From: a virus
Taxonomy: Duplodnaviria > Caudoviricetes
IMG/VR virus record: IMGVR_UViG_3300029286_000011
Direction: 5' to 3' (one strand)
DNA: 64,000 nt
Below are positions 1 to 12,000 of the stretch, in pieces. The position numbers were made by a program. Numbering within the stretch: position 1 is the first letter of the stretch; each line of letters starts with the position of its first letter.

Positions 1-3000
1 AACATCGGATCAAAACACGACAAGTGAAAACCGTTCACACTGTTCGTGTAGCATCCATCACCTAATCCTAGCCCCATCAAAAGCGCAAATGGTTCTTCTC
101 TTAGTCCGGCCGCTGTGAATCCGGCAGGCCGCAAACCAGCAAAACGACCCTTGCCGGCCTTCTGGCCTACTGGATAAATACCTTCAATTGTGTCTGTAGC
201 ACTGAACGGATATGTACTCAATGACGCCAGTATCTTGTGGTCTAACGTGGATTCAAGGGTGATTCGCTGCCTGGCTAGACCAACTTGAAACGCCGTCTGA
301 TGACAATTTCGCAGGCCGTTGTCAAAGCAACGCAACACCTGGACAGGGAAGGTATTTCCGTGACGGTCAGCGCCTAGTACCCAGTCGCCTGGACGTATCT
401 GCTCGATTGGTCTGACACTCCAGTCGGCCATACGTACCAACGTACCACGCACAAGACAAATTTGTGCCTGGGTAAGCGGTTCAGACAACGCCTGTGATGC
501 CGTTAATGCTGGATTCTCACCGATATTAGGCAGTCTTCCGAATTCACGGATGCCTACGTCACGCGCATAAACGCTGCCATCACCAGGCCCATTAACCATT
601 GGGCTGCGCACAAGGATGTCGTCTATGCCTTTGTGACGAAGATCAGCCAGTATCTTGGGCGTCAGGATGGTGTTGCGAGGATAACCGCCGGCAGGTGCAG
701 ACAACAATGCACCTTCGTTATCACCATCGTCTGTGCGTGACGGCAATCCAACCAACGTTTCTGGATCTTTATCTGCGTCTAGTGACGTGACGATAGCTCG
801 GTGAACAATCTGACTGAGCTGCTTAGACAAGAACCCAGCGTCCCTAGTGGAATTGGAGACTATGAGCCCATTGGCCAGAACAAACAAATGATCAGGGCAG
901 GCAACTTCAAGATCAAACGTTTCACAAAGGCCCATTGATTGCTTGTCAATGATCTTAAATCCGTATTGATCCCCATCAGCACGGCGCGACTGGTATAGCC
1001 TGGCTTTCTGAAGTCTCCGGGCCTTCACACCAAACAATGGAACACGCGCAGCAAAACGACTAACTGACAAAGGGTGATTGATCGTCAGTCGCCACTGGTC
1101 GTGTGTTGCGTTAGGTCCGCATTTCTCCACAGGAACGAAGTTTAAGGACGACGTCCATATTCCAAGCCGCAGCTCCAACAGACGCTGCACGCCTAGAAGT
1201 AACTGCTTGGACGTCGATCGAATGTAGATCGAACAGCCATTTTTTCTAGTTTCGACACCGCCGTCAGTCAAAAAGATACCAGCCAGTAAATTGCCAATGG
1301 CTGCATCGTCCCAGCCCCACACCGCACCTGGCAACGTCTTTTCATGGGCATAATACTCGCCAAGACATTCTCGCAGCCAACGCTTTGACGGGTTCAAATG
1401 TCCTTTGGCAAAACAATTACGGTTGTTCTTCCGAATGACAACTCGTTTCGTCTTATCTATCTCAACTAACGCGGCGCTGTAACTACCGACCATGGGCTGG
1501 AAGCGCAAGTTGAATACGCCGATACGCTGATTTATTAGCTGTAACAACTCATCATCTGCACAAGACAACGTGTAGCAACCGTGACATTTTGGCGTCATAC
1601 ATCCGTCACCTAGCATCAGCCCGGCCAGCAACGCATGCGGCTCGGGTCGGCCTATTCCGGCAGCTCCTTGAGCTGGATAGGCCGAGAATGTATTTTTGCG
1701 AGGGTTCTTTTGTACGCGTGCCCGCCACATAGGCAACGCTGTTGGTTCGTATACGGATCTGTGGGCATAGGTTGAACCTGGCCTGCCATCCTTGATCTGA
1801 GCCAGTACCTTGTGGTCTTCGGTTGCACCTAGCTCTCGAATGGAATCATCCTGTCGACAGCCGCCCTTCCTAAATCGATAGCGAAAACACTCTCGATGCC
1901 CATTAGCGTATACAGCGGTTACCTGCACCGGGAACATATTGCCACATGTATCGGCGCCCATCACCCAATCACCAACACGAATCTTCTTTATAGGCTTCTC
2001 ACTGTAGTCAGCCATCAGCACAAGCGTGCCGCCAACTAGACACATTTTGAGATCGATTAGGCCCTTCCTAGTACCATACGATCCAGCCCAGTATTCGGCG
2101 GGTGAATAACCCTGCGAATAACTGTGTCTGATGGGCACTGGAATGACACGGTCACGATGATCGGTAAACAGCAACTCGCTACCACGCAACGCAGCCAATC
2201 CAAAAGCATTACCACGAGAACCAGATCGGATTTGTCGGGCCAACGGGTTGTCTTCTTGCAGGCTTTCTTCGAGCACATCTTTAGACATGCGCTCGCCAAT
2301 CTTGCCTGTCATCTTGACCAGCTGCTTGTCGCGCTCGTCGTCACTCAGGCTGTCATCGCTAAGAATTCGAGTAAGTCCGTCAAGCAACGTTTTCTTATGC
2401 TGCGTGGCTACCTTAGCCTCTGTCAGATGCCGTAGACCAAATGAATCGCCGCCAGAGCTAAACGATATGTGCTTGCCGATCTGCAACAGACGATGGGATA
2501 TATCCCTGTACTTCTCTGGATATTTCTGTGCAATCGTGCGCAGCAGTTTGCTCATTGCAGCCTTATCAATGACAGCGTTATAGTCCCGTAGCTCTTCAGG
2601 GAGCACGGAGTTCACCATCAACGAGCCTATCGTCGTCTGCAACCTGGCCATCTTACTTCCTGTGTGTGCGTAGGCAGAATTCCACTCGTGCCAACTCGTA
2701 GTCTGTAAGACTGGCTTCTATGAATGCTTGCTCTTCTTTTGTCACAGGGCCTACGACAACCTTTTCGTTCTGTCGTAAGCTTTCACGGATCGTGGCTACA
2801 TCGTTTACCAATTCGGCAACATTCAAGCTTGTAGCAACCTCGGTGACTTGCCCAGGCGCAGGCACAATACTAGCGTTGAGCCAACGCGCATAACGGCTAG
2901 CCCGCTGCGTTGTTTCTACGTCTTGCGAAGGTAGATGATTCATCACAACACCTTGGGCAGATCTTCAGCGGGTCTTAGCTTGTTTGTAACGTCATCGACT

Positions 3001-9000: not shown

Positions 9001-12000
9001 GAGCCTCAGGATCAACAAGATTGAGGGCCTGCGTAATGAACCTGGAGCCCATGACAGTGCGCTGGCCCTTAACCATGCTCTTGAGCGGCACTAGATTGCC
9101 TAATGGCGACATGGCTTGTTCGAAATGCGGTACGACATAGTCGACATCGCTCTTCTTCACCCACTGCATACGCCCGTTACGCATGGCAACGACGCGAGGC
9201 AGCTGCGTGTTCATCTCACCTGGAAATGCTATCGTGGAGTTGGCAATGTCTTGTGGCGATCTGTAGACCTGTTTGCCAGTCTTGATGTCGACGAATGGTG
9301 AGTACAGCTTGCCGCCAGGGCCTTTGCGCGAAGCTCGTGCAAAGTACACATCCACACCGCTACGATAAGACTCAGGAGTACGCAGCGGATCGACAAAGTT
9401 CAGATGCGACGGCTGCACCGTTCGGGCATCTTCTGGCACAGCGTCCATGCTGGACAGACCACCCTCACCCATACGAGTAAGCTTCCATAGCTTATCGTAT
9501 ATCTCGGCGGAATTAACTTCTTCCAGGTTCTGACCAAGACCAGAGTTCAGCAGCGCTGATTCAAGCTGCTTTCCCAAGGCATTAGCAGGAATAGCCGACA
9601 AGCCATTCTTGAATGTGGCCCTGTACAGCAGCTTTCTACGCATACCGCCGTAGTCTTTGGCAAGACGCTCAGCAAAGATGTCTTCAGGAGAATGCACAGT
9701 CTGGAAGGCTAGATGATCACGGTCATCCACTTCCTGCTTACCTTGTGAGATAGCAAGCAGTTTCTTCGTAGTATCCAAAATGGCCGGCAATGTCAGTCGA
9801 TCATACGGCTTTCCGAGCGTAGCTTTTGTGACCTCAGGATCAAGCCGCATGTCTGATAGCGACTTGGCTAGCATCTCACGACGCATGTTGTCGTCGGCAT
9901 CAGCTGGAACCCTAGACACAAAACGCTGTACCAGTTTGTGAAGCGCTACCGTCTTATCCGCACCGCTGTTGGCAGCGAGAATATCAGGGCCCCACGCTTC
10001 ATTAAGCATCTTGTCGTCGGCACCCATGGCCCGTAGCAACGGAATCATGGGAATCTTGGCCTGTCCTACGCGGGCGTAAAAGACACCCTTGGCAGGATCA
10101 AGAAAGTAACGATGTGCACGACCTTCACCCGGCAACACGTTAACGTGTGCTTCTATCTCGTTGTTCTCTTTGACACGAGTGAATATACCGGGTCGCAACC
10201 GAAGCTGGCTGGTAAGCGTGTACTCGTTACCACGGAAGATGAATGTGCCTCGTTGTGTCATGTGAGGCACACGAGCTATAGTCATCTTTCGTTGTTCGAC
10301 AACTTGATTGTCGGCGGCATTGATGAGTCGCCACGTTCCTCGCAAACGCCTATCCAACGTACCGTTGGTAAGTACGGCCTTCTTCTCTTCAGCCGGCGTA
10401 CGTTCCTCGGGGTCAGCGTAATGTACGTCAGCCAGCTGCAAGCTGTAGCGATTGTTAGACAGCGGCTTGAGCTTCTGTGCCGCATCCAAGACATTGGCAT
10501 AAATGCCACGCCGTGTCTGCGCAGGATTACCAAACTCAGCCAGCGTAGTCTCATCAGGCTCTACAAATGCCGGTGGAGCAATCGGCGGCAATTCGTCGGC
10601 CTGCTTGTCGCACAGAAAAGCATCGTCACTGAAGACACTCATTGTCAGACATCCTGGGCTGTAACGTCTTCATCACTGTTATCGACGTCAACCGGACGGG
10701 CGAACACAGGCACCGGACGGATTTGCGCCTGTGCATTCTCATACTTCTTGACAGCCTTGCGCAGTAGCTCGCTGGGGCTACGCTTTTTGGTGACGTCGTA
10801 CATCATTTTGGCTACGACGAGTGCAGGAAGCATGGCCACAGAGCCGTACATACCTGCAGCCTGTCCAAGTGTGTGCCCCCAGGAGGACGCCTGCTTCTCA
10901 TTGCTACTGATCAGATCGAACAAGTCTTCCAGAGCCGTGGACAACTCAGCAGTTTTGCCAGGCACTCCACGCAAGGTGCGTTCGTAGTCCTGCTCAGCAT
11001 CGGTTAGATCTGTTTGCAGATCGGCTTTATGCCGCTTGCCTAACAACCAATCGATCAGTTTCCAACCGCCATATGTGGCTGCCGTGGTACCGCCGATCAT
11101 TGCCGGTGCGGCCCAAGGAATACCGCTTGTATCCTCGGCGTAATGTCCGGCAAACCATTTCTTGAGAGGGTCGGTAAACGTATCAGGCGTCGGCACGGGG
11201 TTGGCCCGTTTCTGTAGCGGCTTTCGCTTAACAGGAATGTCCATGACTATAGGCTTTGGAACCTTGAGGCTTGGCGGCGAGATGTTACTGTGAGCCATGT
11301 TGTACAGCCCCAGCAAACCTCGTGAGCCGGCACCAACGCCAAGACCCATCGTCATAAGTGCCGCCAGCTGCTTGAAGGCTGTATTACGCAGCATCTCAGC
11401 GTTTGCTGACTGCAATACTTCGCTAGGCACTTTGCTAAGGTCCAATCCGTCTGCTTCGTTAGCCATGTTTCGCTCCTGTTGTCGCCGGATTCAATTCTGG
11501 TGGTAAACGATGTTTGGCCAATTCTCGTTGAGGTACAGACCACACAACGTAAACCAGTATCGTCACACTACCATCCGGCCGTTTGACCCACTTTTCCTGC
11601 ATCCTGTAGATCACGTACCACTGATTCACAGAACGGTCTACGATTTCACGCAACTTATCACGCTGCGCAGGGTCGCCCATGTCGAAGATATCGATATCTG
11701 CATCATGGACTACCTCCGTGTACTTTTGGTATTCGTCGTCACGCAGTAGAACTGGTGCGCCCCTAAACGGCAGACCATCAACAGCCGTTCTACCAAAATG
11801 CAAAGGTCCTCTTTCATTGTCCGACGAAGTGTTCTTGTCACGATACTTGAGAAATGACATCAGGTAACTGTCCGGCCACGCTGTGGCGTTGTTTGTTTAC
11901 GCTGCTGTGCCTGTCTCCGTTGGCTCGCTTGTGCAGCTGCAATTCGAAGTTCTTCGATCCGTCGTCGAACACGGACGTCTTCCAAATCTTCGTCGCCAAG

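Follow-up and report, generated by a model that had tools for sequence, protein, structure and literature searches.

A phage RNA polymerase with β fused to the N-terminal half of β′, a separate β′C gene and four inteins

The 64,000-nucleotide stretch of tailed-phage DNA analysed here (IMG/VR record IMGVR_UViG_3300029286_000011; Duplodnaviria, Caudoviricetes; the whole stretch is called the window below) encodes a multisubunit RNA polymerase whose β subunit continues in frame into the N-terminal half of β′ (β′N), and whose C-terminal half of β′ (β′C) is the product of a separate gene. The genes present this architecture, its conservation among relatives, the catalytic motifs, the inteins, the loss of the zinc sites and a sigma homologue as direct observations. 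We consider it very probable that the core is a two-chain bacterial-type RNA polymerase made of β-β′N and β′C. Promoter recognition by a sigma factor on its clamp helices, a covalent link that takes over part of the role of alpha, and packaging in the virion as the only polymerase of the phage are inferred.

The window comes from a lake-water metagenomic contig of 209,573 bp (ENA ERZ27250635, k141_2774619), of which about 110 kb was covered by our reading. The genes of the contig lie almost all on the same strand, the majority without a family match, and include three transfer RNA genes and, further along, a baseplate-J-like gene; the source genome is that of a large tailed phage. The fused gene (4049..10642, minus strand, as are all parts of the polymerase genes given below) is an open reading frame (ORF) of 2197 residues including two inteins (P0001), with a stop after residue 2197. 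Its β portion (6548..10642, residues 1 to ~1365, holding intein 1) runs in frame into its β′N portion (4052..6547, residues ~1366-2197, holding intein 2), and the translation contains ELKGAGINV at residues 1353-1361, the catalytic motif NADFDGD at residues 2103-2109 (4316..4336) and LGGLY at residue 2153. The β′C gene (3..2651) begins 1.4 kb downstream on the same strand, with its ATG at 2651, and leaves the window at its start after 883 residues. The complete second protein (P0003, 1804 residues) was taken from a public contig (L003:17992-23406). Three small ORFs of 260, 86 and 97 residues separate the two polymerase genes. The initial annotation had described a 2197-residue ORF in frame from β through NADFDGD to LGGLY, with the rest of β′ starting at ATG 2651 after three small genes; translation and alignment to E. 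coli bear out the former, and the ORF listing the latter.

The similarity of the fused chain to the bacterial subunits is strong. The Pfam domains Rpb2_6 (expectation value, E, 2e-43), Rpb2_2, Rpb1_2 (2.5e-25) and Rpb1_1 share one frame in P0001, which matches bacterial β and β′ with E of 1e-61 and 6e-45. In the E. coli alignment, residues 115-1361 correspond to residues 117-1337 of the 1342 of β, and residues 1446-2169 to β′ 160-526; in addition, residues 345-554 of the 624 of cyanobacterial γ align to the β′N portion. Apart from intein 1, β is unbroken as one polypeptide from residue 1 to ~1365. It is compact, and the alignment shows that the lineage-specific insertions of E. coli are missing, as is the trigger-loop insertion. 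Both active-site lysines of β are retained, in GDKL|SGRYGDKG around intein 1 (E. coli GDK...GNKG). The clamp helices lie in β′N, as does the catalytic domain with the Asp triad, and the chain ends ~88 residues past NADFDGD. Since β and β′N are on one polypeptide, both catalytic double-psi β-barrel domains share one chain.

At the junction (6503..6586, residues 1353-1380, ELKGAGINVVPTGSKLQLMALTDKDVDV), β homology extends to residue ~1380, which corresponds to nearly the last residue of bacterial β chains, and β′ homology is detectable from residue ~1439, corresponding to β′ 151. Some 75 residues bridge the two, where bacteria have ~150 residues including the zinc ribbon, and β is joined to β′N without a linker. 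The junction sequence is conserved over 61 aligned homologues. According to a model built with these homologues, two adjacent strands (model residues 209-214 and 217-222, P0001 1359-1372) lie just past ELKGAGINV; ten-residue blocks there have a mean predicted local distance difference test score (pLDDT) of 83 and 60, in a model in which parts of the β segment fall below 50. Searching this model with Foldseek matched γ and β′ chains (E 3e-11) and no other chain kinds. Because Foldseek works chain by chain, the geometry of the junction lies outside what a fold search tests.

The second chain supplies the remainder of β′. P0003 residues 4-204 align to Streptomyces β′ 659-861 and residues 1118-1267 to Thermus β′ 1239-1387, and the alignment to E. 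coli β′ runs onward from P0003 residue 122 at ~707. The bridge helix and the trigger loop are both found in this chain, in TRKGLIDLKM|STRDAGFLSKQL and SEPLTQAQI|SSKHTGG, respectively. In E. coli β′ numbering, the fused chain ends at ~554 and the second chain starts at ~586. The N-terminal zinc-ribbon region is missing from β′ and neither of the β′ zinc sites is retained; the 2501 residues of both mature chains contain one cysteine. The polymerase core of β′C stops near P0003 residue 1395 and is followed by a tail of ~410 residues (P0003 ~1395-1804, L003:22174-23406, outside the window), which is rich in Ala, Pro and Gln and has Met-rich hydrophobic stretches. The tail has no homologue in the β′C of the fetched relatives and no PHROG match, and a protein atlas returned only sub-threshold look-alikes for it (best 0.84).

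The two genes are interrupted by four endonuclease-bearing inteins, two in each, all of which begin with Cys, end with Asn and are followed by Ser or Thr. Intein 1 (7193..8251, P0001 798-1150, 353 residues) sits in the β active-site motif GDK-L|SGRYGDKG with Ser as the next residue, and contains a Pfam LAGLIDADG_3 domain at 1035-1071; one relative (L006) has an intein at this site that is 47% identical. Intein 2 (4694..5785, P0001 1620-1983, 364 residues) lies in β′N between GSSPKFG and TVQRRL, with Thr as the next residue. It shares 25% identity with intein 1 (E 5e-22), and homologues run unbroken across its site. Intein 3 (852..2042, P0003 204-600, 397 residues) interrupts the bridge helix and matches Pfam Hom_end_hint, Hint and LAGLIDADG_3. 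Intein 4 (P0003 732-1117, 386 residues in full), whose N-terminal part lies at 1..458 before it leaves the window start, interrupts the trigger loop, matches Hint_2 and shares 36% identity with intein 3 (E 1e-61 to 2e-67). Removing the inteins, as the initial annotation had proposed, gives chains of 1480 and 1021 residues, the first of which comprises a complete β and the N-terminal half of β′. As each gene is broken by two inteins, four protein-splicing events are required for an active enzyme. Four inteins in one enzyme, all within motifs of the catalytic centre, are an extreme load. Two relatives (L005 and L006) have further intein sites in the N-terminal part of β, in β right after GDKG and in β′N past the Asp triad, together with a double insertion at the bridge helix. 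This polymerase family is an intein hot spot.

The sequence was assembled from short metagenomic reads, and the initial annotation had named an assembly artefact at the junction near 6560 as a way in which the fusion could fail; a frameshift error would likewise leave β and β′N as two genes. However, window positions 1-10700 are contained in one contig in each of three separately assembled lake-water runs (one or more of which may represent the sample of origin), without a single difference or gap over 10.7 kb, and the identical 2197-residue protein is found on 9 contigs. Searching with the junction segment (residues 1151-1619) returned 1154 proteins at E <= 1e-5. Among the best 120 of the protein clusters, nearly all cover this segment end to end at 57-66% identity, and the intein-free size is 1350-1526 residues in 95 of 119 homologous clusters (the query's own excluded; intein-free median 1472 residues). 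IMG/VR holds at least 131 related contigs; the best 80, on contigs up to 229 kb, all match the junction segment, 76 of them over its residues 1-468/469, and identity across the junction is 53-66% when clusters and contigs are taken together. The same continuous frame is present in cultured phages, namely Salmonella phage Arash (gp206, 1525 residues) and Vibrio phages D69, D148 and D181. Together, the three identical assemblies, the more than 100 divergent homologues and the two sets of cultured phage genomes in the same frame exclude an assembly artefact, and we give this explanation practically no weight.

The split is conserved along with the fusion. Among the loci that extend far enough downstream, β′C is a separate ORF 1-6 kb downstream in L001, L002, L004-L008, L015 and L016. 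The fused-and-split layout is standard in a very large, mostly uncultured phage family, and this enzyme belongs to that abundant, Arash-like family: its spliced chain of 1480 residues compares with ~1450-1530 in the family, and its β′C is separate and on the same strand. Arash (OQ632216.1; gp206, gp216, gp10), D69, D148 and D181 have the same β-β′N fusion and a separate β′C, and are ~30-31% identical over 66-69% of P0001, or practically the whole chain apart from its inteins. Arash and D69 carry a single polymerase set and a gp10-like sigma, and a gp10-like sigma is also present on this contig. These cultured phages differ in having no inteins and a β′C of ~606-610 residues without the C-terminal tail. 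Nine genes lie between the polymerase genes in Arash, two in D69 and three here, and the remaining genome of the Arash and Vibrio phages has almost nothing in common with the window. Uncultured contigs of ~170-230 kb (e.g. IMGVR_UViG_3300028592_000004, 229 kb) share the layout, the syntenic 260-residue gene and the upstream genes; they are mostly without inteins, and the fetched ones lack the β′C tail. Megablast of window positions 1-10700 against the phage collection gave no match.

In the published Arash annotation, gp206 is called 'beta' and the fusion is unmentioned (PMC10585845). A description of the fused-and-split layout was not found in the full-text literature searched, coverage of which leaves out subscription journals, nor in PMC10585845, PMC7598289, PMC7824862, PMC7481178 or a Vibrio-phage preprint. 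The initial annotation had not recognised the combination among described phage RNA polymerases; this holds for the papers, but public genomes have the layout. Its refuting condition, that a described phage clade already has this architecture as standard, applies only in the weak sense that those genomes are public. The layout is a variant of a known enzyme type for which we found no published description, and is not unique to this phage. New in this copy are the four inteins, the ~410-residue β′C tail and the located gene of a sigma-like partner.

Comparison with known polymerases places the enzyme outside the described groups. The Helicobacter and Wolbachia rpoBC genes join the C-terminus of β to the N-terminus of β′ in frame, as here. 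There, the fusion takes in the whole of β′, and the enzyme retains alpha, omega and the zinc sites. The phage ORF stops at β′ ~554, after the catalytic domain, and membership of the Helicobacter type was rejected on this point. The split resembles that of cyanobacteria and plastids, in which the Asp triad is likewise separated from the bridge helix/trigger loop by the division into γ (RpoC1) and β′ (RpoC2). P0001 ends at about residue 559 of the 624 of γ, and residue 23 of P0003 lines up with residue 9 of RpoC2; the phage break comes some tens of residues earlier than the cyanobacterial one. Cyanobacteria differ in having β as a separate gene and a large trigger-loop insertion. The cyanobacterial and phiKZ splits fall in the same inter-domain region (PMC7598289), and the aligned sequences place the phage break in that region as well, not at the identical residue. 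The initial annotation located the split correctly, in the rpoC1/rpoC2 region. Its separation of the Asp triad from the bridge helix and trigger loop is also real, but cyanobacteria and phiKZ-like phages do likewise.

The phiKZ/AR9 enzymes are phage-encoded, have no alpha and split β′ after the catalytic domain, as here (PMC7598289), and the phiKZ-type β′N profile phrog_2987 ends ~28 positions past P0001 2138. However, in phiKZ/AR9 β is made of two or three chains and never fused to β′, two enzyme sets, a virion and a non-virion one, are encoded per genome, and a sigma homologue is missing (PMC7598289, PMC7824862), whereas here β is unsplit and there is one set in the genomes of five relatives. 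The similarity to phiKZ-type profiles is also much weaker than to bacterial-type profiles (67 versus 149 bits for β′N; 29-45 versus 71-140 bits for the β segments), and phiKZ/AR9 membership was rejected on all these grounds. The mReC phages resemble this one as tailed-phage contigs with compact bacterial-type β and β′ of similar total size (PMC7481178). As described by Weinheimer and Aylward in 2020, they have adjacent but separate genes for β (~1000-1400 residues) and a complete β′ (~900-1300 residues, NADxDGD), often in two sets per contig, and no fused form is listed in their Supplementary Data 2 (PMC7481178); judged by gene layout, the present family is not the mReC lineage. The crAss-like and YonO single-chain polymerases are highly divergent, with no detectable similarity to COG0085 or COG0086 (PMC7481178), and were rejected as P0001 is strongly similar to the bacterial subunits.

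The initial annotation had pointed to alpha- or sigma-like partners elsewhere in the genome, and the search for them gave a sigma-like gene on this contig and no alpha in the genomes of five relatives. One β match and one β′ match each were found in three IMG/VR genomes (G001, G002 and G003, rated at least 92% complete, two of them at 100%) and in Arash and D69; the alpha subunit (PF01000) had no match in any of these five, with 14 of 14 control genomes positive. A sigma-like gene (L118:15985-16728, 247 residues) lies 44.7 kb downstream of the polymerase genes on this contig, beside the baseplate-J-like gene and within a long run of same-strand genes that starts at the polymerase genes. Its product scores 28.3 bits for Sigma70_r4 and 26.5 bits for Sigma70_r3, both over the Pfam cut-offs, matches the annotated sigma factor gp10 of Arash with E 3e-11, and is 38% identical to proteins of G001 and G002; 42 homologues of it were found, the largest of their contigs being 231 kb long. 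G001 and G002, which are genome-scale close relatives, encode a gp10 homologue of ~250 residues at 35-45 kb downstream of the polymerase genes. Within the window and L003, Pfam on 30 of the larger ORFs and profile and single-sequence searches with the sigmas of relatives gave no sigma.

A complex model of the sigma-like protein with β′N residues 1370-1619 scored 0.73, compared with 0.00 for the best control; the score mark applied is met by 58 of 80 solved complexes and by 2 of 110 mismatched pairs. Three runs share at least 75% of contacts, and the pLDDT of the partner is at least 69. In the model, the sigma-like protein uses its N-terminal helices to contact the clamp helices (P0001 1536-1584). 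The contact of sigma region 2 with the clamp helices is well known from textbooks and solved structures. Because a similar complex is already solved, the model shows likeness to it and not binding of this copy. Arash (L020), D69 (L021) and G003 (L023) have a second sigma-70-like protein of 262 residues; the three copies are 39-42% identical and match region 2 over the Pfam cut-off. This second sigma was not detected in G001, G002 or the ~110 kb of this contig.

We propose the following working of the enzyme. Chain 1 consists of a compact, complete β directly joined to the half of β′ with the clamp helices and the NADFDGD magnesium site, and chain 2 of the C-terminal half with the bridge helix, the trigger loop and the C-terminal clamp and jaw elements. 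The four inteins would splice out, after which the two chains would form the core. The covalent link between β and β′N would take over part of the role that the alpha dimer plays in assembly. By its likeness to known factors, the 247-residue sigma-like protein would sit on the clamp helices of β′ and recognise promoters. The enzyme would probably be made with the late genes, packaged in the virion and serve as the only RNA polymerase of the phage, as in Arash. In particle proteomics of Arash, gp206 has the highest spectral count (3516), and gp216 and gp10 were detected too (PMC10585845); in addition, the portal gene of Arash lies just upstream of its fused gene. The position of the sigma-like gene on this contig, taken with the Arash proteomics, makes virion packaging plausible for this phage.

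Several points count against this proposal. The penultimate histidine is missing in all four inteins, which end in GN, GN, SN and SN. The intact fused chain, intein splicing and packaging are predictions made here from genes alone, and no RNA record was found for the window stretch. An alpha-like gene or a second polymerase gene may lie on the remaining contig beyond the ~110 kb read. A phage sigma factor could redirect the host polymerase instead. Finally, the Arash particle proteome comprises 116 proteins, about half of the genome, and its authors allow for carry-over of abundant non-structural proteins (PMC10585845).

One alternative is that the polymerase is not packaged and acts as a middle or late enzyme produced once infection has begun, the early genes being read by host polymerase that the phage sigma-like factor redirects. 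Being of the bacterial sigma-70 type, the sigma-like protein could bind the host core enzyme, and the Arash proteome may include carry-over. However, gp206 is the protein with the top spectral count in Arash particles, in which gp216 and gp10 are abundant as well, and the portal gene is directly upstream of the fused gene in that phage. On this contig, the sigma-like gene adjoins the baseplate-J-like gene in the same-strand run from the polymerase genes, and its product was modelled, by likeness only, on the clamp helices of the phage's own enzyme. We regard an unpackaged polymerase as rather unlikely, while taking it more seriously than any other alternative to the packaged two-chain enzyme.

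Another alternative is that the product of the fused ORF is cleaved post-translationally, for instance by a phage maturation protease, so that the enzyme has three chains and the fusion serves to couple expression and stoichiometry. The state of the mature chain is known here from the genes only, and one distant relative bears on the question from both sides. In G003 (L015/L016, 168 kb; ~30-36% identity), the polymerase is encoded in three chains. The first (L016 7637..11059, 1140 residues) contains β and just the first ~90 residues of β′. A stop and a spacer of ~200 nucleotides are followed by the rest of β′N (~11264..12438, ~390 residues) and then by β′C (18414..20321, 635 residues). β′N is thus genetically broken again soon after the junction, and extra breaks are tolerated. 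However, β stays covalent to the first ~90 residues of β′ even there, which argues that the link itself is selected. Cleavage is also disfavoured by the linker-free junction, for which the model gives two adjacent strands and not an exposed loop, and by the full β-β′ fusions of Helicobacter, which work uncut. We consider cleavage improbable, well below an unpackaged enzyme, and retain the intact two-chain enzyme as our preferred reading.

In cellular RNA polymerases, β and β′ depend on an alpha-type platform to come together. How alpha-less phage polymerases assemble is an open question that has been raised for phiKZ/AR9 (PMC7598289). The present family offers a natural answer that can be tested, in which β is tied to the catalytic half of β′ and the mobile half is left free. 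More tentatively, and with somewhat less than even confidence, we suggest that the family, next to phiKZ/AR9 and mReC, forms a third major lineage among phage multisubunit RNA polymerases. Its enzyme would be sigma-dependent, alpha-less and zinc-free, with two catalytic chains and a covalent link replacing the alpha platform, and would be carried in the virion as the sole polymerase. If so, no bacterial-type holoenzyme known would be smaller than this set of two core chains and one sigma of ~250 residues. Abundant in viromes from lakes, the sea and sewage, the family has cultured members in Arash and the Vibrio phages and apparently keeps a recognisable sigma; these properties make it a tractable minimal system for the structure and mechanism of initiation and assembly. 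The layout also matters for annotation, as the fused protein now goes under 'beta subunit' or 'hypothetical protein' and the family escapes searches designed for β and β′ as separate genes. It is a finding of note for polymerase specialists.

Of the three small genes between the polymerase genes, the one at 3184..3966 (minus strand) encodes a 260-residue protein that is rich in Met, Pro, Gly and Ala and has no Pfam or PHROG match. It has Met/Pro/Gly-rich repeats resembling PMDPAMMGGMPP and keeps its position in L004, L005 (E 3e-19) and L006; the protein may be polymerase-associated or internal to the virion. The 86-residue protein (2943..3203, minus strand) has no family match and a weak homologue at the same position in L004, and the 97-residue protein (2653..2946, minus strand) has neither a family match nor a homologue in the fetched relatives. 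Pfam and PHROGs were blank for the upstream genes except for a glycine zipper in 11860..12795, and PHROGs gave nothing useful for ten large downstream proteins.

Several further genes of the window, all on the minus strand, have recognisable relatives. A 443-residue protein (33399..34730) matches the NCBIfam model NF052498 of the TIGR-Tas RNA-guided endonuclease (E 2e-24, 86.6 bits, slightly below the cut-off of 100); no tandem guide array was found near its gene within 28-38 kb. The gene at 32000..33379 encodes a divergent adenylosuccinate-synthase-like protein (Pfam Adenylsucc_synt, E 2e-53), which is far under the NCBIfam PurA cut-offs and scores 58.7 bits against a cut-off of 300 for PurZ of the 2-aminoadenine pathway. 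Genes of the RmlD, RmlA and RmlB types for deoxythymidine diphosphate (dTDP) sugars (19622..20554, 38146..39033 and 39045..40118) could serve sugar modification of DNA or of a surface structure. A 934-residue protein (15693..18497) combines a 2H phosphoesterase, a P-loop domain and a LigD-type 3′-phosphoesterase domain, and by its domains looks like an RNA/DNA end-healing and repair enzyme. Finally, at 40888..43086 a ThiF-family (E1-like) gene adjoins that of a 470-residue protein with a weak JAB-domain match, and the pair may form a ubiquitin-like conjugation module.

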